Assembly: GCF_900095195.1 (NCBI RefSeq)
Contig: NZ_LT606950.1
Location: 907,207 to 939,206 of the forward strand
Length of the DNA stretch: 32,000 nt
Reading direction: 5' to 3'
Origin: Polynucleobacter necessarius
GTDB lineage: Bacteria; Pseudomonadota; Gammaproteobacteria; Burkholderiales; Burkholderiaceae
The translations under genes and the position numbers were made by a program. Shown piece by piece: positions 7,946 through 26,442 of this stretch (position 1 is the first letter of the stretch; the number at the start of each line of letters is the position of its first letter). The notes beneath the pieces were generated by a model. That model made no database searches and was not told the origin of the DNA. It saw only the letters and a program-made list of their open reading frames with translations.

Positions 7946-8699
7946 ACGCCCAAGAAAAAAGCATTGTGGTCTCTTCCACCACCTCTACTGAGCAATCCGG
8001 TTTATTTGGATTCATCTTGCCCATCTTCAAAATGAAAACTGGCATTGATATAAAAGTGGTTGCCGTTGGTACTGGCCAAGCGTTGGACATTGGACGTCGC
8101 GGTGATGCTGATGTTGTCTTTGTGCACGACAAACCCGCAGAGGAATTGTTTGTACAAGAAGGCTATTCCACCAAACGCAATGAAGTGATGTACAACGACT
8201 TTGTCTTAATTGGTCCAAAGTCTGATCCTGCAAAAGTCAATGGTGGCAAAGATATTCAAGTAGCGTTTCAAAAAATTGCTGCGGCGCAGGCTCTATTCGT
8301 CTCGCGTGGCGATAAGGGTGGCACCCATGCGGCCGAGTTGTGCTATTGGAAAGGCGCTGGAATTGCAGTCTCGCCCAATCAAGCTTGGTATAAAGAAACG
8401 GGCTCTGGCATGGGCCCTGCCCTGAATACCGTTTCCGCGATGAATGGCTATATTCTGGCCGACCGCGCTACTTGGCTTAGCTTTAAGAATCGAGGCGATC
8501 TCGCTATTCTGGTTCAGGGCGATCCCAAGTTATTCAATCAATATGGCGTGATGTTGGTAAATCCTGCCAAGTACCCCAATGTCAAAAAAGCGGAAGGTCA
8601 ACCTTTATTGATTGGCTCATCTCTAAAAATGGTCAGGACGTTATAGCAAGCTATCAAATTGGTGGTGAGCAACTGTTCTTCCCGAATGCCAAGAAATAA
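7927..8699 (+). pseudogene. tupA: Tungstate-binding protein TupA, signal peptide lost and C-terminal frameshift
   Basis: It has the TupA hallmark TTSTEQSGL plus GTGQALDIGRRGDADVVFVHD, FVLIGPKSDP and FVSRGDKGGTH. An in-frame TAG at 7918..7920 lies directly upstream, so there is no signal peptide. After ..KKAEGQ the homology shifts frame to FIDWLISKNGQDVIASYQIGGEQLFFPNAKK* (stop 8697..8699). Confidence 0.8.
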
Positions 8700-10596: not shown

Positions 10597-11037
10597 TTGA
10601 AAAATATTGATATTTTGCTTCTATCCTGGAAAGATGCTGCCAGCGAAGCATTTTCCATTCGCAAAGCCGTCTTTATCGAAGAGCAGAATGTGCCTGAGGA
10701 ACTCGAGCTCGACGAATTCGACGCCCAAGCAATGCATGCCTTGCTTAAATTCAATAACCAATCGATTGGCACGGCAAGATTAGTCGACCTACCGAATGGA
10801 CAAGCTCAAATCGGGCGAATGGCAGTATTACCGCAGTACCGAGGTCAAGGCTTTGGCAAACAAATTCTGGTAAGAATGATCTTGGCCGCGAGGGAGAAAG
10901 GGATCACCAGTCTTATGCTGCATTCCCAAGTAAGCGCCGTCCGCTTTTATGAAAAGTTGGGATTTATTGCTCAAGGAGCGATCTATGATGAAGCGGGAAT
11001 ACCGCATCGTAATATGATGTTGGAATTACTGAAATAG
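10597..11037 (+). CDS. GNAT-family N-acetyltransferase
   Basis: Intact 146-aa ORF with a TTG start. It has the acetyl-CoA-binding motif region IGRMAVLPQYRGQGFGKQIL and ..FYEKLGF. Confidence 0.8.
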   Translation: MKNIDILLLSWKDAASEAFSIRKAVFIEEQNVPEELELDEFDAQAMHALLKFNNQSIGTARLVDLPNGQAQIGRMAVLPQYRGQGFGKQILVRMILAAREKGITSLMLHSQVSAVRFYEKLGFIAQGAIYDEAGIPHRNMMLELLK

Positions 11038-11501: not shown

Positions 11502-12078
11502 ATGTCAGACGGCAAACTCCTCACCTTTGTAAAAGCGCTCAGCATATTGCTGGAGCAAAAGCCCAGTGAAGAGACGATTTTTACTCAGGGCAAAAAATTT
11601 CTGGAGGATTTCGTTGCGACAGACGATTGATTGCCCGATGAATTTACGAAACCGCACCCCCATACTATCAGCAATACCTTCTGTATGCGGACCCCTTAGA
11701 TCGGTTCTCTATGGTGAGTTTTGTGTGGGGTCCAGGTCAAAAAACCCCTGTTCACAATCACACCGTATGGGGAATGGTAGGCCAATTACGCGGGGAAGAA
11801 AAAGGAACGCCCTACTTCCTCAACCTGATGGTCGTTTGATGGCTGGAGTGTCGAGCATTTCTGCGCCGGGGCATGTTGATACTGTCTCCCCTGCTACGCA
11901 TGATATCCACGTGGTTGAAAATAACTTGATTGATAAAACCTCAATCAGTATTCATGTGTATGGCGGCAATATCGGCAAAATCCAGCGCTCGGTTTTTGAT
12001 CCAGAGACAGGCGTTGAAAAATCTTTTATCTCTGGGTATGCCAATACTGTGGTTCCCAATCTTTGGAAATCGACTTAA
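11502..12078 (+). pseudogene. Cysteine-dioxygenase-like cupin (thiol dioxygenase family), nonsense codon plus two frameshifts
   Basis: GGAGA Shine-Dalgarno, then MSDGKLLTFV..FVATDD*LPDEF with an in-frame TGA at 11628..11630. The next frame reads PYYQQYLLYADPLDRFSMVSFVWGPGQKTPVHNHTVWGMVGQLRGEE. A third frame reads ..GHVDTVSPATHDIHVVEN..SISIHVYGGNIGKIQRSVFDPETG..SGYAN. Confidence 0.75.
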
Positions 12079-12152
12079 TTTGCAAATGAATCGCTTGGGT
12101 TGGGTAAAATAGAGGTTTGAGAACTCCCTTAAACTTCTTCAAGCGAAATCCA

Positions 12153-13257
12153 ATGACCACTAACCGTCGCTCCGCCTTAAAAACAATTGCAGGCGCCATT
12201 GCCCTGCCAACCCCGGGTCCAATCTCCAACGCATTTGGCCAAGCAGATCCTAATTGGACTACCTATGAAATTGTGACGGAGGTGTCTCTAGAGTCACCAA
12301 ATGGCACAGCAGAAACTTGGATTCCACTGCCTTTAGTCTTAGATACAAGTATTTCCGTACCCTTGCCATCAGACCTGAAGCGAGTGACCCAAAAGCTGTA
12401 GATCAAATTTATGTAACACCCAATAAACAAGCACGGATGCTTTGGACAAAGTGGGATCGCTCCGCCACCAACCATCAGGTGAAAGTTTCAATATTGGTTA
12501 GCACACAGAATCGTCACCTAGAAATTGCTACGCCAAACCCTGCCTTAAAACTCTCCAAAGACGAATTGGATTTTTGGACACGCGGAACCAAATACCTACC
12601 AACAGATGGCATCGTGAAAGCAAAAGCGCAAGAGTGTCTCGCTGGCTTACCGTCTAATGCCACGGATATTGACAAAGCAAAAGCCATCTATAACTAGGTA
12701 GATGGTAACACCCACCGCAACCCTAAAACGCGCGGTTGTGGCTAGGGCAATGTGAAGCTGATGCTGGAAACCAACAATCTCGGCGGTAAATGCGCAGACA
12801 TCAATGCGGTTTTTGTTGCATTAGCGCGCTCGGCCGGCATACCAGCGCGCGATGTGTATGGCATTCGTATTGCCGACTCTGCCAGAGGCTATAAGAGCTT
12901 GGGCAAAGGTGGCGCATTACCAAGGCGCAGCATTGCCGTGCTGAGTTCTATGCTTCCGGATACGGCTGGGTTCCAGTAGATCCTGCGGATGTTCGCAAAG
13001 TCATCCTAGAAGAAACTGGTGGATTGGCAGTGAATGATCCCAAATTGGCTATTTGTGACTACCTTTTTGGCAATTGGGAAATGAATTGGATGGCATATAA
13101 CTATGGCCATGACATTACCCTCCCAGGATCTGCTTTAGGAAAGAAAGGGGAAATTCCGATTTTGATGTATCCCCAAGCCGAAAATACCGAAGGTCGTTTT
13201 AACTCTTTAGATCCTGATAACTTTAAATACAAAATTACGAGTCGCCGTATTGGTTAA
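12153..13257 (+). pseudogene. Tat-exported transglutaminase-like protein, two frameshifts plus two in-frame TAG codons
   Basis: It has a twin-arginine signal (MTTNRRSALKTIAGAIAL). The transglutaminase core is GKCADINAVFVALARSAGIPARDVYG..HCRAEFY..GWVPVDPAD. Frame changes occur at ~12395 and ~12960. In-frame TAG codons lie at 12695..12697 and 12743..12745. Confidence 0.8.
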
Positions 13258-13294
13258 TTCAGTTGATCGATAAGCTTCTTCTGAGGTTGAGTCC

Positions 13295-13837
13295 ATGCGA
13301 TTGCAAAAGCCAGCAATAGACTATCTTCTAGCGCTGGCTTTCTTACTCCTGACAGTGTTTGCCGTAAACGCAAACGTACAATGGCGCCCCGCTTCCCAGG
13401 TTGGCTTAACGCAAGCGCCACCCTTGGTGCTCAACAATCTATCCGGTAAGCCGATCGATATTAGCAACTTCAAAAATAAGGTAGTGGTTGTGAACTTTTG
13501 GGCAAGCTGGTGCGAACCTTGCCGTAAAGAATTTGGTGAACTCATCGAATTGCAGGAAAAATATGGCTCCAAGGGCCTAGTAGTACTTGCCGTCAATCTT
13601 GCTGAAATGAAGCCACGTATTTTGCAATTCCTTAGAGGTAATGGTATCCCCGAAAACAGCATTGAAATCCTCATGGATCGCAACAGCACCATTTATAAAT
13701 CCTGGAAGGCCCGCGGAATACCAACAACATTCCTAATCGGAAAGACTGGCAAGGTAGAGGGCGTTTAGATCGGCGCCATTGAAAATGTCGATAGTGAAGA
13801 CGTTACTAAAAAAATTCAATCCCTTCTTCATCAGTAG
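13295..13837 (+). pseudogene. TlpA/ResA-like periplasmic thiol:disulfide oxidoreductase with a premature TAG (last ~22 codons lost)
   Basis: It has a signal anchor and the thioredoxin motif VVNFWASWCEPCRKEFGEL. An in-frame TAG lies at 13766..13768 (GKVEGV*IGAIENVDSEDVTKKIQSLLHQ*), and the natural stop appears to be 13835..13837. The truncated product could still be partly functional. Confidence 0.6.
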
Positions 13838-13874
13838 TTAGCGAATAGCTTCTCTCTTCTGATACCCTTAAGAT

Positions 13875-14945
13875 ATGACTACGCAATCCCATTCTATTGA
13901 GCCCTCTGAGCCGCGCTTAACCTCCCTATCGCATGGTGGTGGGTGTGGTTGCAAGATTGCTCCTGGCGTCCTTTCAGAAATTCTGAAAAATGTTCCGCAA
14001 TTGCCCTTCCCAAAGGAGCTCTTGATTGGCATTGAAACCTCGGATGATGCCGCTGTCTATCAAATCAATGAATCACAGGCAATTGTCGCTACAACCGATT
14101 TTTTCATGCCCATCGTCGATGACCCATTTGACTTTGGCAAAATTGCCGCAACCAATGCTATCAGCGATATCTATGCAATGGGCGGCACACCTCTATTTGC
14201 ACTCGCTTTGGTTGGAATGCCGATTAAGGTGTTATCCAATAAAACGATTGCTCGCATTTTGGAGGGTGGCGCAGAAGCATGTCGTAGTGCTGGTATTCCG
14301 ATTGCTGGTGGCCATACGATTGATTCGGTCGAGCCCATCTATGGGTTAGTCGCAATTGGTATTGTTGATCCTCAGCGCGTCAAGAGTAATGCGAGCGCAA
14401 AACCCGGAGATGTTTTGATCCTAGGAAAACCACTTGGAGTAGGTATTCTGTCGGCGGCACTCAAAAAAGATCTTCTGGGACCCGATGGCTATCAGGAAAT
14501 GATTTCAAATACCACTAAGCTCAATGCTGCCGGGCCCGATTTAGCAAAACTCCCATGCGTTCATGCTCTGACCGATGTTACCGGCTTTGGTTTAGCGGGT
14601 CACGCCTTAGAGCTTGCCCGTGGATCGAATTGCACAGCCCACATTGATTGGGATCAAGTGCCCCTACTCTCGAATGTGCAAAACCTGGCTGATGACGGCA
14701 TCATCACCGGAGCATCTGATCGTAATTGGCTTAGCTATGGTGATGACGTTGGTATTCCAGAGAGCTTTACTGTGGCACAGCGTGCATTACTTACTGATCC
14801 TCAAACCAGTGGCGGCTTATTAGTCTCTTGCAGCCCCGAAAGCGTTTTAGAAGTGCTCGATATTTTTAATCAGCATCACTTCTTAGGCGCCCGCGTGATT
14901 GGTCAGATGAGTAAACGACAGGGCAAGCCTCTCGTCGTTTCCTAA
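13875..14945 (+). CDS. selD: Selenide, water dikinase (selenophosphate synthetase), Cys-type
   Basis: Uninterrupted 356-aa ORF. The N-terminal glycine-rich loop is SLSHGGGCGCKIAPGVL. Further motifs are DDAAVY, TTDFFMPIVDDPFDFGKIAATNAISDIYAMGG and ..DPQTSGGLLV. Confidence 0.95.
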   Translation: MTTQSHSIEPSEPRLTSLSHGGGCGCKIAPGVLSEILKNVPQLPFPKELLIGIETSDDAAVYQINESQAIVATTDFFMPIVDDPFDFGKIAATNAISDIYAMGGTPLFALALVGMPIKVLSNKTIARILEGGAEACRSAGIPIAGGHTIDSVEPIYGLVAIGIVDPQRVKSNASAKPGDVLILGKPLGVGILSAALKKDLLGPDGYQEMISNTTKLNAAGPDLAKLPCVHALTDVTGFGLAGHALELARGSNCTAHIDWDQVPLLSNVQNLADDGIITGASDRNWLSYGDDVGIPESFTVAQRALLTDPQTSGGLLVSCSPESVLEVLDIFNQHHFLGARVIGQMSKRQGKPLVVS

Positions 14946-14956
14946 ATTGAATCGTT

Positions 14957-15835
14957 TTATTGAGCGTTAAATACGCTTGAGAAATCCAACTGCCCATTGC
15001 CCGCTTGCTATGGGCTTCATAAAGTTGCTCTGCCAATTTAGCCATGGGGACGCTGGCATCTAACGCTTGTGCGTTCTCGGTAGCCAAACCCATATCTTTG
15101 AGCATGAGATCGACACCAAATCCGCCGCTATAAGCCCTTGAGGCGGGAGCATTTTCATTACACCAGGGCAAGGGTTATAAAGTTCCAGCGCCCAATTGCG
15201 ACCCGAGCTTTTTGACATGATGTCTGAGAGCACTTTAGGATCTAAGCCATTCGCGATTCCTAAACGCAATGCTTCACACGTTCCAAGCATCTGAATACCC
15301 AAGAGCATGTTGTTGCACACTTTTACGGTTTGCCCTGCGCCACTTCCACCAGCATGAAAAATATTTTTGTCCATTTTCTCGAGAATCGGACGAACACACT
15401 CCACCACCGATTGCACACCTTCATCATGCAAGAATCAGGCGGTACCCGCCTGAGAGCCTGCCGTACCACCGGACACTGGTGCATCGACCATAGCAAATCC
15501 TTTTGCTTGAGCGGCATTTGCAACCGCTTGAGCGACCTTAAGAGAAATCGTCGAACAATCAATCAGGATGGATTTAGGATTGGCCGTTGCCAATAGACCG
15601 TTTTCATCCGAATACAAGCCCTCAACATGTTTTGAGGCAGGCAACATCGTAATGACAACATCGGCATTAGCAGCTGCAGCATTGGCATTCGGCGCCGCTT
15701 TACCACCAGCCGCAACAAAGGCATCGAGTTGGCTTGGCACCAAATCAAAGCCCGTGACGGCATAGCCTCTTCCTTAAGTACATTGATCCCCATTGGCAAA
15801 CCCATATTACCCAAACCAACAAATCCGATATTCAT
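14957..15835 (-). pseudogene. mmsB: 3-hydroxyisobutyrate dehydrogenase family protein, at least four frameshifts
   Basis: The pieces lie in different frames: MNIGFVGLGNMGLPMG; ..ADVVITMLPASKHVEGLY..MVDAPVSGGTAGSQAGT; ..IFHAGGSGAGQTVKVCNNMLLGIQM..; ..YSGGFGVDLMLKDMGLA..; and the tail GNGQLDFSSVFNAQ* (stop 14957..14959). Confidence 0.85.
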
Positions 15836-15845
15836 AGTGTCTCCA

Positions 15846-16118
15846 TCATGTCATTTTTCTAGATGCCAAATACTTAACGCCGTCTAGGCCATACCGCTCC
15901 GCATGCAATTCTTCAAGAGCTAATTGAAATACATCACTCTCGTTATATCTTGTTTTGATCCCATTAATCTCAATCTCAATATAACCCTCAAGAATCAGTG
16001 CCTGTACTGCAAAAGCATGCGTATGATTTGGCAGTTGGCCATTTGGAGGCTGCTGGACTTCAACAGGATGCGGAAACCCAGACTCTTGAAGTGCCTGTAG
16101 AAATCGGGGTTGATTCAT
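15846..16118 (-). CDS. Small cupin-domain protein
   Basis: Intact 90-aa ORF with a cupin metal-site-like segment (GQLPNHTHAFAVQALILEGYIEIEING). Confidence 0.6.
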   Translation of the reverse strand: MNQPRFLQALQESGFPHPVEVQQPPNGQLPNHTHAFAVQALILEGYIEIEINGIKTRYNESDVFQLALEELHAERYGLDGVKYLASRKMT

Positions 16119-16175
16119 GCGATAACTATAGCGCGGATATACACTCTTTTCATTAGCCCTATTTTGCGAGGAAAT

Positions 16176-16384
16176 ATGATCGTTAAAGTCATCGGATTAA
16201 TTGAACTAGTGGATCAAGCCGCATTTGAGCAGTATCGCAGTCAAGTTAGCCAAACGGTAGCGCAATACAAGGGTGCGATTGCTCACCGTGGCGCCGTGAC
16301 AGAAGTCTTTTGGAATGAGCTGGGATGCAAACCTTTGAGGGCTTATGTAGAACTGCACTTTCCTAGCCAAGAAGACGCACACGC
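16176..16384 (+). pseudogene. DUF1330-family protein, 5' fragment cut at the inversion breakpoint
   Basis: GAGGAA Shine-Dalgarno, then MIVKVIGLIELVDQAAFEQYRSQV..AIAHRGAVTEVFWNELGCKPLRAYVELHFPSQEDAHA. Family homology stops at ~16384. The rest of ORF 16110..16418 (RNRPKTWKMT) is antisense to rhodanese coding sequence. Confidence 0.7.
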
Positions 16385-17294
16385 CAGGAACAGACCGAAA
16401 ACCTGGAAGATGACCTGACTCATATTCCTCGGGAGTGCGAGTATCAAAGAAATAGGTGGTGCGATCGCTCTGCGATTTCCATTGATGAACATCGGCTAGA
16501 GAAGCACGCTTCACACCGGCGCGATCCGCAACATTGCGCGCCCGCTGTGCAGCAGTAACGGTGGTGTTTTGACTCACCTCTGGAAATTTGCGGGTCTGAC
16601 ATTTATCAAGCGCTTGGCCAGCAAGAGTCCAGCCGATCGTGCCATTGCGCAAAGCATTCACTTCATTCGGAATACCTGCATTAATTAGCGATTGGGTGCC
16701 GATGATGCTACGTGTTCTGCCAGCACAATTGACAATAATTTTTGTCTTGGGATTGGGCGCTAATTCAGGGAGGCGTAGTACTAATTCTACGCCAGGCACG
16801 CTAATCCCCGTCGGAATACTCGTGGTGTTGTATTCATCAAAACGGCGTACATCGACAACCACTACATCTTCTTGATCGTCGATGAGTTTTTTCACTTCCT
16901 GAGCCGATAATGAGGGGGTATGACGCTTGGACTCAACGAGTTCTCCAAAAGATTTGCTGAGAACATTCACGTCTTTAAAGACTTCACCACCCGCAGCCTT
17001 CCAGCCCTGCACGCCACCCTTAAAAACGGATACATCGGTAAAACCAAGAGCAGAGAGTCGCTGCGCGGCGAGCTCTGCATCACTTTCACCATCATCTAGA
17101 ATAACAATGGGCACCGTTTTCTTGGGTAGCTTGCCATAGGCATCGATCTCGATGCGGGAGAGCGGCAGATTGGCAGCAAATAAGGGATGCTCACGAGCGT
17201 GCGGATCCTCTTCGCGCACATCTAAGAAAGCAATCTCTTCTTTATTCAGTAGTTTATTGCGTACAAAGGAATAGTTTTTCTTAGCAATACTCAT
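16385..17294 (-). pseudogene. Multi-domain rhodanese sulfurtransferase, N-terminal ~304 codons (5' half of a gene split by inversion)
   Basis: It contains several rhodanese modules (FLDVREEDPHAREH.., VVVDVRRFDEYN.., active-site loop IIVNCAGRTRS, FFDTRTPEEYESGHLPGFRSVPG). Homology ends at ~16383. The remaining 58 codons of ORF 16206..17294 are antisense to DUF1330. Confidence 0.85.
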
Positions 17295-17318
17295 TGCTGT
17301 CTCTATGATTTAACTTTT

Positions 17319-18301
17319 TTAATCTAACTTAGCGCCGGATTTTTTAACCACTTCACTCCAGCGCGAGATTTCTTGATTGATGTAGTTTGCCAATTCCGAG
17401 CGACTCATTTTAGGTACGGTGGCGCCCATATTTGCCCAGCGCTCTTTGATGTCAGGGGAGGCAAGAGCCGCTTGCACTTCCGCACTCATCTTATCGACAA
17501 TCTCTTTTGGAGTGCCTTTGATAGCCCATATCGCGTACCAGCTTGAAACGACAAAGTCTTTCGGGCCCAGTTCTTGAGCAGTGGGAACATTTGAAAGGCA
17601 GGGCTACGCTGATTGCTAGCAACCGCAACAGCGATCAGCTGACCGCTTTTTATAAAAGGCGCTGCTCCAGCCAATGTATCAAACATCATATCGACTTGAC
17701 CCGCCACCACATCCTGTAATGCTGGACCAGTACCCCGGTATGGAATATGCGTAATGAACAATTTATTTTGCATCTTAAATAATTCGCCGGTTAGGTGTTG
17801 CGAGGTACCGTTACCGGTAGATGCATAGTTGTATTTGCCGGGATACTTGCGGATTTCTTCGATGATCGATTTAAGATCATTCTTTGGAAACTTATTGGGG
17901 TTGACTACGATGACATTAGGAATGCCACCAATAATCGCGATCGGTTCAAAATCTTTAGTAATGTCATAACTTAGATTGGTGTACATGCTCGAAGCAATTG
18001 AGTGATGCACTGCGCCAAGTAACCAGGTGTAATCGTCAGGCGCCATTTTTGCCGCAGCCGCTGCACCTACTGTGCCACCTGCGCTACCACGGTTGTCTAC
18101 TACGATGGAATCGTTCAACTGGACCGATAACTGCTTTGCCAGAGGACGCCCAAAGGCATCCACTGCTCCGCTTGGAGGAAAGGGGTTGATGAAGGTAATC
18201 GGCTTATTGGGAGACGGCCAAGCGACACTTTGGGCGCCTGCCGACAATGAGAGTAGGGTAAGAAAGCTAGCAAAAGCTAAAACCAAGCAATTTTTGCGCA
18301 T
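17319..18301 (-). pseudogene. Bug/TctC-family substrate-binding protein, frameshifted
   Basis: ORF 17486..18301 is Bug-type (ITFINPFPPSGAVD, VVDNRGSAGGTVG, ASTGNGTSQHLTGELF). At ~17590 the homology shifts frame to ..PALPNVPTAQELG..VSSWYAIWAIKGTPKEIVDKMSAEVQ..ISRWSEVVKKSGAKLD* (stop 17319..17321). Confidence 0.85.
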
Positions 18302-18463
18302 TTTTGACGTCTCCAGGGGTGTTTTGATCCTATTAAAGCATTTTGGCTGAATCAGTGCTTCTAAGAGTTATCCCTGATAAAAAGGGCTATTTCTTGTGGT
18401 TTTTATGGGGATATACTAATTTCGCTGTAGTTATGAACATTCATTTGATGATTGGGAGACGAG

Positions 18464-18763
18464 ATGTCACAACACGATACATTGTTAGCTGCATTCGAAA
18501 CATACAAAGCTGAAAACGAAAAGTTTATTGAAAGGGGTATTAAGGCATCTGCAGCGCGTGCACGTAAGGCCTTACAAGAAATTGCTGGTGCTTGCAAAGA
18601 GCGTCGCAAAGAAATTACCGCTACTAAATACTCGGAACTCTTTGCCCAAGCGTGTAACTCGTTCAAGAAACGGAAATGGTTGCACCAGTACGTGGCGCTC
18701 GCATTGTTCTGGTTGATCCGAGTGGGGGTGGCGTACGCGCCAATATGCCAGCATCCTGGTTAG
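18464..18763 (+). CDS. Hc1-like histone-H1-type small DNA-binding protein; natural stop apparently lost, with read-through into rhodanese sequence
   Basis: GGGAGA Shine-Dalgarno, then MSQHDTLLAAFETYKAENEKFIERGIKASAARARKALQEIAGACKERRKEITATK. This resembles the Hc1 / bacterial histone H1 N-terminal motif (KGNKAAg.RaRKa..el.k.ake.RKe) as I recall it. The ORF then runs ~45 further codons across the inversion junction to 18763. Confidence 0.5.
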   Translation: MSQHDTLLAAFETYKAENEKFIERGIKASAARARKALQEIAGACKERRKEITATKYSELFAQACNSFKKRKWLHQYVALALFWLIRVGVAYAPICQHPG

Positions 18764-19365
18764 CGCAGATGGCATGGGAAGTTTATGCGCTCGATGACGT
18801 CATACCAGAGCAACTTACGGAAACGGGACCTTGGAAAGCGCCATTACCCAAACTACCCGACACCGAAACGGTCGATGCCAAAACGTTGTCGAATTGACTC
18901 AAGACTGATAGCAATACGATTGTGGTAGATTTCAGTACCCACGCTAATTATGTAAAGTGTCATATACCTGGCAGTTGGTATGCTCTGCGCTCGCAGTTAA
19001 GCGAGGCACTCACCAAACTTCCCAAAGTCGATCGCTATGTACTAACGAGCACGCCTGCAGAACTCGGTAAATTTATTGTGAAAGAGATGCAGGCACTTAC
19101 CAGCGCAGAGATTATTGTTCTAGACGGCGGAAATGCCGCATGGATTCAGGCTGGATTAGAGCTAGAAAAAGGCCCTAGCCATTTGGCCTCTCCCCCGCTG
19201 GATCGGTACAAACGTCGGTATGAAGGAGCTAACGTCGATCCTGCGGCCATGCAAGCCTCCCTTGATTGGGAGTTTGGCTTAGTAGAGCAACTAGGCAAGG
19301 ACGGAACCCACCACTTCTGGGTTTTTAAGGCCCCCTTGTTGTTACTGAGAATCGCGCCACTATGA
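18658..19365 (+). pseudogene. Multi-domain rhodanese sulfurtransferase, C-terminal ~235 codons (3' half of the split gene), with an additional nonsense codon
   Basis: The sequence LVQETEMVAPVRGARIVLVDPSGGGVRANMPASWLAQMAWEVYALD.. continues the protein that ends at GFRSVPG on the opposite strand. TAA lies at 18655..18657 at the junction. An in-frame TGA lies at 18895..18897 (TLSN*LKTDSNTIVVDFSTHANY). The tail reads ..DRYKRRYEGANVDPAAMQASLDWEFGLVEQLGKDGTHHFWV. Confidence 0.85.
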
Positions 19366-21941: not shown

Positions 21942-21962
21942 GGCATTTACCTCAAAAGTTGT

Positions 21963-23177
21963 TTAAAGAGCTTGAGCACAAGCATGCCAGCTTACCCAAG
22001 CCCATTAAAATTATACCCACCGAGATGCCCGGTGACATCCACACACTCTTCAATGAAATATAAACCAGGATGTTTACGAGATCCCGTCCTTTGGCTGTCG
22101 AGCTCTTTGGTATCGACCCCACCCAACATCACTTCCGCCTTTTTCCAACCTAAAGTGCCTGCAGGTTTTACTGTCCAATTGGTGATGAGGTCTTTGAGCG
22201 CTTGGCGATCCTTTTCAGAAACTTCCGCCCATTTACGACCCAACAAACCACTACGCTCAGCAAATGCTTTTGCTGAGCGTAGTGGCAATGCCAGTGCCAG
22301 AAGATTTTCAGTCAACTTCAGACGATTCTCATCGGCATTAAACAAGGCATCGCAGTCAATACCAAATTTCTCACTATCTGCCAGCCAATTCACAGTGACT
22401 GGCTCACCCTCCACCCAATAAGCTACTTGCTTGTAAAACTGCCGGGCCAGACAAGCCTTTGTGCGTCAGCAATAGATCTTCATAGAAATGGCCAACGCCA
22501 TAACGTTGACCTTTTGCTCCAGAGCCAATCTGTACTGGCACACTTAAGCCGGCAAGCTCATTGAGATTTCCAAAGGTATCGGCAGTAAACGAGAGTGGCA
22601 CTAAAGCAGGTCGTGGGTCAACGACTTGGAGACCAAACTGTTTGGCGATATCCAATGAATATGCCGTTGCTCCGATTGCTGGCACAGGTAGCCCACCCGT
22701 AGCCATAACTACCGATCTGGTTTTTTCTAAACCGCGATTGGTTTGTACGAGCCATAAATCGCCCTCTTGAGTAATTGACTCTACGGATACTGGATTACGA
22801 ATGGTGACATTACCTTTTGTACATTCCGCAAACAACATGTCAATAATTTGCTTTGCCGAGTCATCGCAGAATAATTGTCCTTGTGCTTCTCGTGATACGA
22901 AATGTTCGTATGCCTTAACCAGCTTGATAAATTCAGAAGAGGGATATCGTGCCAGCGCGCTCTTCACAAAATGAGGGTTGAGAGACAGAAAGTTTGCTGG
23001 GCCACTATGAAGATTGGTGAAGTTGCATCGCCCTCCACCACTAATGCGGATTTTTTCACCCAATACGGGAGCATGGTCCACTACCAGCACTCTCTTTCCG
23101 AGTTGCCCAGCGCCCCCCGCACAAAAAAGGCCTGCAGCGTCACCACCAATGATGACGGCATCCCAAGTCTTATTCAT
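21963..23177 (-). pseudogene. HI0933/aminoacetone-oxidase-like FAD flavoprotein, two frameshifts and a damaged dinucleotide-binding motif
   Basis: The N-terminus reads WDAVIIGGDAAGLFCA, where GxGxxG has Asp in place of the second Gly. It also has RISGGGRCNFTN. A shift at ~22420 changes ..LQASS to AYWVEGEPVTVNW. A second shift near ~21995 changes GGYNF to WAWVSWHACAQAL* (stop 21963..21965). Confidence 0.85.
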
Positions 23178-23180
23178 GTT

Positions 23181-23693
23181 CTACTCAAATCGATCAATGA
23201 TCTCAGAGGAGATATTGAGTTTTTTCATGTGCAACTTGGTATATGCCTGACGAAAGTTCTTTGTCATCGATATCATGACCGAAGCAGTCCAGGAAAATGC
23301 AAACATGCCGGAGAAAGCGATGATGACTGCTAACATTTTCCAGCCGTCTGGAAGAATATCTTCCATAAAACCCATCGCGGTGTAAGTGCTACCACTAAAT
23401 AGAATGCATTGACCCAACCCCGGGATCAACTTGAATCCATAGAGCGCAAATCCCCAAATCAGAATCTCAGCAACATGCGTTAGGAATAGATACAGCACGC
23501 TGATATAAAAACAGATGGCAACACTAGAGTATTTTTTCTCGGCCAAATACAAAAAGGTATTCACTTCATAACGCTTCGCAATCTGCAGCAGCACTATCCC
23601 ATGAAAAATCATGACGACGAGGAGCATAAAACCGCCCAGTAAATAGCCTGGTAGGTCTATTGCAGTAGCTAAATTCATGTGCGCGAAACTCAT
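23181..23693 (-). CDS. Ion-channel-like membrane protein (two-TM pore-type, degenerate selectivity filter)
   Basis: Intact ORF with TM helices flanking a pore-loop-like segment, ILFSGSTYTAMGFMEDILP (compare F.FS..T.TTvGfGDi.P of K+ channel family proteins). The ORF opens at 23777, but the ATGs at 23693 or 23678 are likelier starts. Confidence 0.5.
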   Translation of the reverse strand: MSFAHMNLATAIDLPGYLLGGFMLLVVMIFHGIVLLQIAKRYEVNTFLYLAEKKYSSVAICFYISVLYLFLTHVAEILIWGFALYGFKLIPGLGQCILFSGSTYTAMGFMEDILPDGWKMLAVIIAFSGMFAFSWTASVMISMTKNFRQAYTKLHMKKLNISSEIIDRFE

Positions 23694-23740
23694 TGATTGA
23701 TTCAGTGTTTTTGAGTATTTTAACGGCCTTAAAACCGCCA

Positions 23741-24599
23741 TTAGGCCAATTGATACCAATTTTGGATCACATTCCAAGCTTCTTTAGCGGTATCCACAAA
23801 ATGAATAGCCCGCATATCTTCCTGGTCAATGACTCCAAACTCGACCATTTTCCTGAAGTTCACCATCGCATTCCAAAATTCTTTACCCAGCAAGATTACC
23901 GGGATCTGAGCAACCTTTTTCGTTTGGATCAGTGTCAAGACTTCAAATAATTCATCAAACGATCCAAATTCACCAGGGTAGGCAACAGTTGCGCGAGCGC
24001 GCAACATGAAATGCATCTTTCGCAACGCAAAGTAATGAAATCGAAAACTCAACCCTGGACTGATATAGGCATTAGGATGCTGCTCTCTTGGAAGACTGAT
24101 GTTAAAACCAATCGTCTCGTGTCCCTGCTTCAAAGGCACCACGATTGGCGGCCTCCATAATTCCTGGTCCACCACCCGTACATATATGTAACTTATTTGA
24201 AGACTGTTGTTGAGTTGCATTGTATTGTGCAACGAGGCGCCCAAATTCTCGAGCCGACTCATAGTACTCGCTATGCAAGAGAGCTTGTTTAGCGGTCTCT
24301 TTTTCCGCAGACGTCTTTGCCTCCTGCTGCAATTGTTCAGCACGCTCACGACTGACAAAGCGAGTAGACCAAAATACGGTAATCGTATGATCGATGCCCC
24401 GCTCTTTTAGCAAAATCTCAGGCTTCAGTAATTCAAGCTCAAACCGAATGCCAATCGTCTCTCGGCGAGATAGAAAGGCTTCATCGTCAAAAGCAAACTT
24501 ATAGGAATCAACCGATTCCTCTTCGGCCAACTGATTCTTATGAAGATCCAAGAACTCCATAATAGTCTGGGCATTGTTAATGGGAAGTTTTGGACTCAT
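23741..24599 (-). pseudogene. LOG/TIGR00730-family nucleotide 5'-monophosphate nucleosidase (YgdH/PpnN-like), frameshifted
   Basis: ORF 24102..24599 ends ..ICTGGGPGIMEAANRGAFEAG. At ~24110 the homology shifts to the frame of ORF 23741..24358: ..ETIGFNISLPREQHPNAYISP..FHYFALRKMHF..ATVAYPGEFGSFDELFEVLTLIQT. Confidence 0.8.
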
Positions 24600-25008: not shown

Positions 25009-25291
25009 ATGAAAAAATTACTTTTTTCTCTTCTCCTATTAAGGATTTCTGAACTTTGCATCAGTCAAACCAACAGTACCCCCAAACGACCCATGAATAC
25101 AATCGCTCCTGCCATGATCTCGTCATTTGCTCCAACCGGTACATTACGCGTTGGCATTAACTTGGGCAATCCCATCTTAGCCAATCAAAATGCAAGCACT
25201 GGTATTTGTCGCCATTGATCCAGTGCGTGGCGCGGACATTAGCTACACTCCTCCCTACATTCAAATTGAAGGGGCTAAAGTAGCCGAGTAA
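25009..25291 (+). pseudogene. Remnant of a family-3 (amino-acid type) ABC substrate-binding protein with internal and 3' deletions
   Basis: A signal peptide plus APTGTLRVGINLGNPILANQNASTG joins directly, and out of frame, to (F)VAIDPVRGADISYTPPYIQIEGAKVAE*. About 60 codons between the two segments are missing, as is the whole C-terminal lobe. Confidence 0.6.
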
Positions 25292-25312
25292 TGTAATTCG
25301 CGCAGTGACCAA

Positions 25313-26442
25313 TCAACACTCATATGTGTGCAAGCGTTCTGGGATGATCACATTACTCCAACCTAGATCATCCCGAATGCATTCCGCCAAAACCGATGCT
25401 GCCTCAGGCTCTCCATGAACGACAAAGACGGTTTTGGGTGGCGATTTAAATCCCCTTAACCAGTCCAATAAGCCTGCTTGGTCGGCGTGAGCAGATAACC
25501 CACCAATCGTATGAATGGATGCTCTCACTTGGACATCCTCTCCAAATAATCGAACTTTTTGAACCCTATCCACTAACCTTCTACCAAGACTTCCGTAGGC
25601 CTGGAATCCAGTAATCACGATTACATTTTGAGATCGCGGTAGATTGTTTGCGAGGTGATGCGCAATGCGGCCTGCATCACACATGCCACTTGCGGAAATA
25701 ATAATCGCCATGCCTTTAATTTTATTAAGGGCTTTGGATTCCTCCACATCAGCAATGAAACGCAGATCTACTGCTGATGGGTTATTTTTATACCAAGTAA
25801 AAGTTGCCTGCGATTGTTGATCCAACTGTGTAAAGTAACGATCTGTTAATTGAGTAGCTGCTGTAGCCATCGGGGAATCCACCCAAACCGCTAGATGCGG
25901 TAAACGACCCCTTCTCACTAAATCCATCAACAAAAATAAGATCTCTTGCGTGCGACCAACCGCAAAAGCGGGTATGACAACATACCCTGCGCTTTCATCG
26001 TACTGCTAATGACCTGCACAAGCTCATCCTCGGTATCACTTAAGGTGCGGTGTAAACGATCGCCATAGGTAGACTCGATCAGCACTACATCCGCCCGATC
26101 AATCATCTCCGGATCTGGCATCAGAACCTTTCCCTTCATGCCAAGATCTCCAGAAAAGACATATCGCTTACGCTGAGCCCCATCCTCCTGAACAGTGAGC
26201 TCTGCAATAGCCGACCCCAAAACATGGCCAGCATTGTGAAACTCTAGCTCAATGCTTGAAGCAATCTCAATCGGTTTTCGATACTCCAATGGCTCAAACT
26301 GAGTCAGCGCATTTTCTACCTCTTGTTTTGAATACAAGGCGACCGACATCTCACCATGCCATTTTCCCAATTTCGCTTTACGCTCAGCATACTCTCTCTT
26401 AAAATCCACTTTATCGATAGGATTTAGAGCGATACTGTTCAC
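25313..26442 (-). pseudogene. MBL-fold beta-CASP ribonuclease-type hydrolase, 5'-truncated and frameshifted
   Basis: Downstream motifs are present (FHNAGHVLGSA, SGDLG, IESTYGDRLH, ..SASGMCDAGRI.., GGLSAHADQAGL, VFVVHGE). The N-terminal ~100+ codons with the HxHxDH motif are absent. A frame change occurs at ~25935-25990 (..KAQG to NVVIPAFAVGRTQEILFLLMD). Confidence 0.8.

Follow-up and report, generated by a model that had tools for sequence, protein, structure and literature searches.

The stretch of DNA analysed here, a 32-kb window of a Polynucleobacter contig to which all coordinates refer unless a relative's locus is named, carries near its middle the two separated parts of one rhodanese gene and, beside the first of them, the remnant of a DUF1330 gene. 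Both genes break off at the ends of the same segment of ~2.27 kb (16385-18649), which runs in the orientation opposite to that found in related genomes. We consider it very probable that this is a real, evolutionarily recent and illegitimate inversion, formed without an insertion sequence (IS), a recombinase or a long repeat, in a genome-reduced and pseudogene-rich Polynucleobacter of the Euplotes-endosymbiont type. Labels of the form L0xx stand for the loci of relatives and P0002 for a relative's protein. The features at the two breakpoints are as follows.

16176 to 16384, plus strand: head of the DUF1330 gene (PF07045), codons 1-70 with the final codon incomplete, ending in ..FPSQEDAHA
16379 to 16384, plus strand: left junction hexamer ACACGC, native to DUF1330, where it lies in GCA CAC GCT (Ala-His-Ala)
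16385 to 17294, minus strand: N-terminal half of the rhodanese gene (PF00581, three stretches), codons 1-303 plus one base, free of stops and frameshifts
18629 to 18649, minus strand: DUF1330 island of 21 bp, codons 71-77 (WAKSSEY), the sole remnant of the gene's tail
18650 to 18655, plus strand: right junction hexamer GCGTGT, the reverse complement of the DUF1330 hexamer, sitting where the rhodanese has GCGGNC
18656 to 19326, plus strand: C-terminal half of the rhodanese gene (PF00581, one stretch), codons 306 (partial) to 529, with a TAA at the join (18655-18657)

Gene order at the locus

The N-terminal half of the rhodanese comprises domains 1 and 2 and the beginning of domain 3, ends in ..GHLPGFRSVPG (alias ..EEYESGHLPGFRSVPG) and shares 79-92% identity with residues 1-304 of its intact homologues, which are 529 amino acids (aa) long. 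The C-terminal half, LVQETEMVAP.. (LVQETEMVAPVRGARIVLVD…DGTHHFWV), reads from 18656/18658 and is 64-81% identical to residues 307-529. In relatives the two halves lie 3 codons apart in one uninterrupted open reading frame (ORF) of 527-532 aa, and an intact relative protein, P0002, has four PF00581 stretches by Pfam. This agrees with an earlier note on this DNA, which had described a split four-domain rhodanese gene, running on the minus strand from 17294 to ~16385 and on the plus strand from ~18658 to 19365, next to a DUF1330 gene that loses its homology after ..FPSQEDAHA (16384). Both readings were recovered, with the refinement that rhodanese homology ends at ~19326 and that the loss of the native stop carries the ORF on to 19365. 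The two pieces belong to one subject and not to different complete proteins: residues 1-304 and 307-529 of the L006 rhodanese (529 aa) map to them, adjacent and non-overlapping.

The DUF1330 head, whose ORF now continues into antisense rhodanese sequence up to a stop at 16418, shares 53-74% identity with residues 1-70 of the protein of relatives (97 aa; …EDAHAWAHSPEYQALVAIRNKAMKLTLFSVAI). Its Pfam match covers profile positions 5-81 of 94, as against 5-89 in the relatives, and the gene in the window is a truncated remnant that falls short of a full-length domain.

A genome scan with the rhodanese N-terminal half as query returned 80 loci, ~50 of them from Polynucleobacter. Every locus that covers the region has the same order, namely cupin (leftward), DUF1330 (rightward), Hc1 (leftward), TctC/Bug where present (rightward), rhodanese (rightward) and lipoprotein (rightward), and the uninterrupted rhodanese and DUF1330 genes that the earlier note had expected in close relatives are found in it, colinear. 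Among the ~50 Polynucleobacter loci and 119 protein homologues the orientation of the inverted segment is unique to the source record. Compared by blastn with L006, the best-matching genome, the window falls into three blocks in the orientations plus, minus and plus, with breakpoints at 16378-16382 and 18628-18638:

window 12153 to 16378, plus: block 1, L006 4224-8475
window 16382 to 18628, minus: block 2, L006 10913-8651
window 18638 to 19326, plus: block 3, L006 10900-11587

The contigs of the two closest intact rhodanese homologues, L081 (92% aa) and L082, are likewise colinear, and the remaining ~16.6 kb covered by relatives is otherwise colinear with the window. When the 362-aa chimeric ORF at the junction was used as a protein query, only its own record (a 1,550,368-bp NCBI contig) among the 120 matches listed passed residue 304; the other 119 listed matches, nearly all of them intact proteins of 527-532 aa, cover the query up to residue ~304 (84%). 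Re-inverting 16385-18649 in silico puts both the rhodanese and DUF1330 back in register with a net indel of zero, and the joins then read RSVPGV*LVQET in the rhodanese and EDAHAWAKSSEY in DUF1330, just as the earlier note had given them. Since both reciprocal junctions are present, length is conserved and the relatives are colinear, an inversion is supported. Pfam also bore out the proposed contents of the inverted block, a TctC/Bug pseudogene (PF03401), the rhodanese 5' half (PF00581) and an Hc1-like gene (PF07432), whereas NCBIfam had an above-threshold family for none of the three genes.

That the event was illegitimate, with no IS copies or long repeats involved, had likewise been proposed, and the window contains no such element. 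Pfam scans of its ORFs found no IS, transposase, integrase, invertase or other recombinase gene in the 32 kb, and a repeat search of the window found no inverted repeat longer than 6 bp with arms at both breakpoints; IS-mediated and long-repeat inversion were rejected on these grounds. A short segment flanked by a perfect inverted repeat is also what a programmed invertible switch would look like, flipped by a site-specific recombinase in the style of phase variation, and we put the chance of this at virtually nil. Besides the missing recombinase gene, the repeat has just 6 bp and no flanking binding-arm symmetry, the junctions lie within coding sequence and destroy two genes, and 0 of the ~50 genomic relatives and 119 protein homologues share the window's orientation. 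Unlike the Hin/Gin, Fim and shufflon switches, the locus has neither an adjacent recombinase nor specific inverted sites, and the inverted orientation is confined to the source record.

The deletion beside the right junction

A second lesion lies immediately inside the right end of the inverted block.

18464 to 18628, plus strand: Hc1-like gene (PF07432), codons 1-55 kept, ORF now running to 18763 (99 aa)
18628 to 18629, strandless: deletion scar with ~150 bp missing (147-152 bp in most relatives; 149 alignment columns, window-specific)

In relatives DUF1330 and Hc1 converge on a hairpin terminator in the ~60 bp between the genes (in L006 a stem of 12 bp, 8579-8608). In the window, Hc1 codon 55 (…ACT AAA, ending at 18628) directly adjoins TAC TCG GAA…, the antisense of DUF1330 …SSEY, at a scar that is 21 bp from the right inversion junction and has 1 nt of junction microhomology. 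The deletion took DUF1330 codons 78-97 with their stop, the hairpin terminator, and the final 7 codons and stop of Hc1. The latter gene, which has 62 aa in relatives and ends there in ..ITATKEAMEAKK (also given as …RRKEITATKEAMEAKK), now continues for 44 foreign codons in the rhodanese C-terminal half, read out of frame, and no terminator-like site is left after it in the window. Its codons 1-55 retain 96-98% identity to relatives.

The DUF1330 island, once re-inverted, is in frame and indel-free after Ala70 and agrees with the W-A-x-S-P-E-Y of relatives. The earlier note had held that re-inversion restores both genes. This is correct for the register of the rhodanese, but because ~150 bp have been deleted DUF1330 gets back just 7 codons and not the whole gene, and Hc1 is damaged as well. 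Putative tblastn matches to a DUF1330 tail beyond SSEY were rejected, as they represent the antisense strand of Hc1.

Inversion and deletion could perceivably have arisen together, in a single complex replication-based event of fork stalling and template switching or microhomology-mediated break-induced replication (FoSTeS/MMBIR), in which a fork stalled at the terminator hairpin underwent serial template switching. We hold this to be possible though doubtful. A survey of 14.4 kb of colinear alignment for window-specific deletions of at least 5 bp yielded 3-4 (~1 per 4 kb), 149 bp at 18629, ~816 bp at 21943-21962 and 14 bp at 10598, and the probability that a deletion falls at most 21 bp from a junction by chance is ~2%. 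The 12-bp-stem hairpin lies inside the deleted stretch, somewhat off-centre, and the junction microhomologies of 0-3 nt would also suit such an event. Template switching, however, gives no reason for exactly reciprocal, length-conserving junctions in both genes, and the argument from coincidence is weakened by the fact that a dead DUF1330 tail is neutral DNA in which a later deletion becomes likelier. FoSTeS/MMBIR products and organelle ‘U-turn-like’ inversions (PMC4417113) share with the locus very short microhomology and the combination of an inversion with a small deletion near a hairpin; the locus differs in that both inversion junctions are exactly reciprocal, with no templated insertion and no net loss, which is atypical of products of template switching.

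The junction hexamers

The earlier note had pointed out that the hexamers at 16379..16384 and 18650..18655 are exact reverse complements, which they are. Junction inverted identity of at least 6 bp occurs in 0.17% of random inversions (P = 0.0017; 200,000 simulated in this window), so that the repeat is connected with the event, be it as substrate or as product. After re-inversion the DUF1330 site reads GCA CAC GCT TGG, as compared with GCn CAY GCn TGG in relatives, and the rhodanese site reads CCT GGC GTG TAA CTC, as compared with CCn GGn GGn CAA CTn. The latter site, which encodes G-G-Q in 74 of 75 relatives, is GCGGNC-like, is GCGTGT in 0/75, and agrees with GCGTGT at 2-5 of the 6 positions. 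L081, the closest intact relative, has GCGGGC (GGC GGG CAA; 4/6) and L049 has GCGGGT (5/6). At the differing hexamer positions, 4 and 6, both junctions carry the DUF1330 allele, and the bases just outside the hexamer segregate reciprocally. A plain break and rejoining at a single point of a repeat that matches at 4/6 or 5/6 is therefore insufficient, since one of the two junctions would then retain the rhodanese allele.

These comparisons suggest that the partner sites probably shared 3-5 of their 6 bases beforehand and that it was largely the exchange that made the repeat perfect. In the same manner, the TAA at the join probably goes back to the event, with its T derived from DUF1330 (ACA→TGT), and not to an earlier nonsense mutation. 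The inversion had been described in the earlier note as microhomology-mediated, and this is supported only in part, since the rhodanese site never has GCGTGT in the 75 relatives. The stop that it reported at the rhodanese join is likewise present, but would be a by-product of the event.

A different view is that the perfect 6-bp inverted repeat was already there in both genes, that the rhodanese was already a pseudogene (GGC GTG TAA), and that short-homology recombination took place within the repeat. The conserved length and the two hexamers that are now perfect accord with this view, as does L049, one of the closest relatives, with its TAA at the same codon next to a 5/6 hexamer. We nevertheless think it unlikely: relatives have neither GTG nor GCGTGT at the conserved G-G-Q site, L081 included, and the view requires that, shortly before the event, two specific substitutions at the conserved Gly and Gln codons happened to reproduce the DUF1330 hexamer. 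Identity among the window, L049 and L081 is, moreover, about equal (~81%), and the selective history of the gene, to which we now turn, excludes a long shared existence as a pseudogene.

Timing of the lesions

The ratio of nonsynonymous to synonymous substitution rates (dN/dS) between the window rhodanese and intact homologues is 0.04-0.07, with synonymous sites saturated in this comparison, and that among intact genes is 0.03-0.05. With dN/dS at the level of intact genes, the rhodanese has therefore been maintained by purifying selection over essentially the whole of its divergence, and its lesions are recent. They comprise the inversion, the TAA at the join, the missing native stop and, at 18895-18897, a change of TGG to TGA. 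At 19321-19365 the relatives have ..TGG GTT CTG TAA and the window ..TGG GTT TTT AAG; the stop loss adds 13 codons to the rhodanese ORF, whose new TGA overlaps the ATG of the downstream lipoprotein gene. In L001, L006 and L011 an extra gene of ~1.2 kb stands between the rhodanese and lipoprotein genes.

L049 is a colinear 2.97-kb contig of a metagenome-assembled genome with three private rhodanese frameshifts. It forms with L081 and the window an unresolved three-way split and has no indel in common with the window. Its TAA was considered as evidence of an ancestral stop and rejected in view of this equidistance, the zero shared indels, the saturated synonymous sites and the dN/dS values; its likeliest origin is an independent C→T change. 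Rhodanese and Bug are also decaying, without the inversion, in L048, the locus of the symbiont P. necessarius PPGSP2, where the rhodanese (L048 10001-11571) has suffered a frameshift and carries a TAA at another codon. The decay of the rhodanese in L048, L049 and the window looks like parallel loss, with the stop at the same codon being coincidental.

The surrounding genome

The third gene of the inverted block carries a lesion of its own.

17319 to 18301, minus strand: TctC/Bug solute-binding protein pseudogene (PF03401), inside the inverted block, with a 1-bp frameshift at ~17582-17600

Compared with L006 this gene splits into two high-scoring segment pairs, the cause being a private 1-bp deletion in the window that is independent of the inversion. 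The free-living relatives L002, L003, L025 and L033 have no Bug gene between Hc1 and rhodanese.

Around half of the genes in the window have stops or frameshifts relative to L006, and the source contig of 1.55 Mb is ~25% smaller than free-living Polynucleobacter chromosomes (1.96-2.17 Mb). Many neighbours are decayed in comparison with L006, through stops, frameshifts or the loss of large internal parts; they lie at 11502-13834, 14956-15767, 22004-24599 and 25045-26373, and an NAD-binding dehydrogenase, an HI0933-like flavoprotein, a lysine-decarboxylase-like protein and a beta-CASP RNase are among them. SelD (13875-14945) is intact at 94% aa identity. The window-specific deletion of ~816 bp at 21943-21962 removed an entire 252-aa membrane-protein gene that relatives have (L006 15466-16224). 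We infer from this pattern a young, eroding endosymbiont genome, its assignment to the Euplotes-symbiont type being based on the decay, the size and general knowledge; the same pattern is described for P. necessarius in reviews (PMC4285135).

Discussion

The model that we favour for the inversion starts from the ancestral order DUF1330 (rightward), Hc1 (leftward), TctC/Bug (rightward) and rhodanese (rightward), with breakpoints in DUF1330 codons 68-70 and in rhodanese codons 304-306 (Gly-Gly-Gln, in the third domain). A reciprocal, length-conserving exchange between these points would flip the block with no need for an IS, a recombinase site or a long repeat. The partner sites would have been ACACGC and, in reverse-complement reading, GCGGGC or GCGGGT, with ~3-5 of 6 bases in common. 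If staggered cuts were made at both sites and the ends were swapped, a heteroduplex of 3-6 nt would arise at each junction, and its segregation at the next replication would give one daughter duplex in which the allele of one partner stood at both junctions, that is, a perfect inverted repeat. Annealing at GCG followed by mismatch correction could lead to the same product by an alternative route. The ~150-bp deletion 21 bp inside the right junction may have been part of the same event or separate from it.

Such anatomy might be the footprint of a staggered, enzyme-mediated cut-and-swap at non-homologous sites, for which we would tentatively name cleavage-complex swapping by a type II topoisomerase such as gyrase, or an off-target tyrosine recombinase, as candidates. 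The allele pattern at hexamer positions 4 and 6 is compatible with a stagger of 3-6 nt, which falls short of proof. A subunit-swapping model of bacterial illegitimate recombination by DNA gyrase has reportedly been put forward by Ikeda et al. The stagger of gyrase is 4 nt, which would be compatible with the junctions seen here and does not demonstrate its involvement. Recent biochemical support for such swapping of cleavage complexes at the gyrase interface comes from Germe et al. 2024 (PMC11164529), who explicitly propose micro-inversions. The locus resembles bacterial illegitimate recombination, the gyrase-swapping model included, in that the exchange is reciprocal, joins non-homologous sites, is free of mobile elements, conserves length and leaves a stretch of 3-6 nt from one partner at both junctions; it differs in that the classical evidence is in vitro or quinolone-induced, whereas the present case comes from a natural symbiont genome whose sequence does not allow an enzyme to be assigned. 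If the proposal is true, the locus would show, within a natural genome, a mechanism documented chiefly in such in vitro or quinolone-induced systems, and micro-inversions in symbiont genomes devoid of IS could quite generally stem from it.

What the comparisons show is the inversion with its exact junctions, the deletion, the absence of repeats and the recency of the lesions. Several points weigh against our favoured interpretation as a whole. The TAA of L049 at the same Gln306 codon (L049 1914-1925) would permit 5 or even all 6 of the 6 bases to have been in place before the event; the nearest relatives, at ~81% DNA identity, do not fix the exact pre-event hexamer of this lineage; and the enzymology, as well as the order of inversion and deletion, is something we infer, the mechanism being read from junction anatomy alone. 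Furthermore, the junctions are present in one assembly only, and metagenome scans with either the left inversion junction or the deletion junction yielded 0 matches; exact look-ups of window proteins for independent assemblies were likewise negative. The single assembly and the empty scans also speak for an assembly or amplification artefact, in which the inverted block would be a mis-join or a chimera, as does the circumstance that symbiont DNA often comes from mixed or amplified samples. Even so, we regard an artefact as very unlikely, given that both reciprocal junctions are present with exact conservation of length, that the block lies within a contig of finished size (1.55 Mb) and has no repeat that would mislead an assembler, and that amplification chimeras yield single junctions and not balanced inversions. 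Moreover, the TGA and the lost stop of the rhodanese, the frameshift in Bug and the 150-bp deletion are independent evidence of relaxed selection on these genes.

With early reductive endosymbionts, such as P. necessarius, Sodalis and Serratia symbiotica (PMC4285135), the window has in common its dense pseudogenes, a smaller chromosome, relaxed selection and the inactivation of genes by structural change. Rearrangements in insect symbionts are attributed mainly to IS proliferation (PMC4285135); the rearrangement in the window, unlike these, took place without an IS or a repeat, and its surroundings are otherwise colinear.

Taken by itself, the significance of the event is small: two dispensable genes were lost in an eroding genome by a known kind of event, as is ordinary in genome decay, and the outcome of the inversion is gene debris and no new function. 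Its value lies in being a clean, base-resolved rearrangement in a reduced genome without IS or long repeats, in which the exchange would have made its own 6-bp repeat and its own stop. Two lessons follow, in that perfect microhomology at a junction need not pre-date the event, and that a stop at the join of a pseudogene need not be a prior nonsense mutation. If many junctions across the genome had the same footprint, this would suggest that structural decay in young endosymbionts has a specific enzymatic cause.

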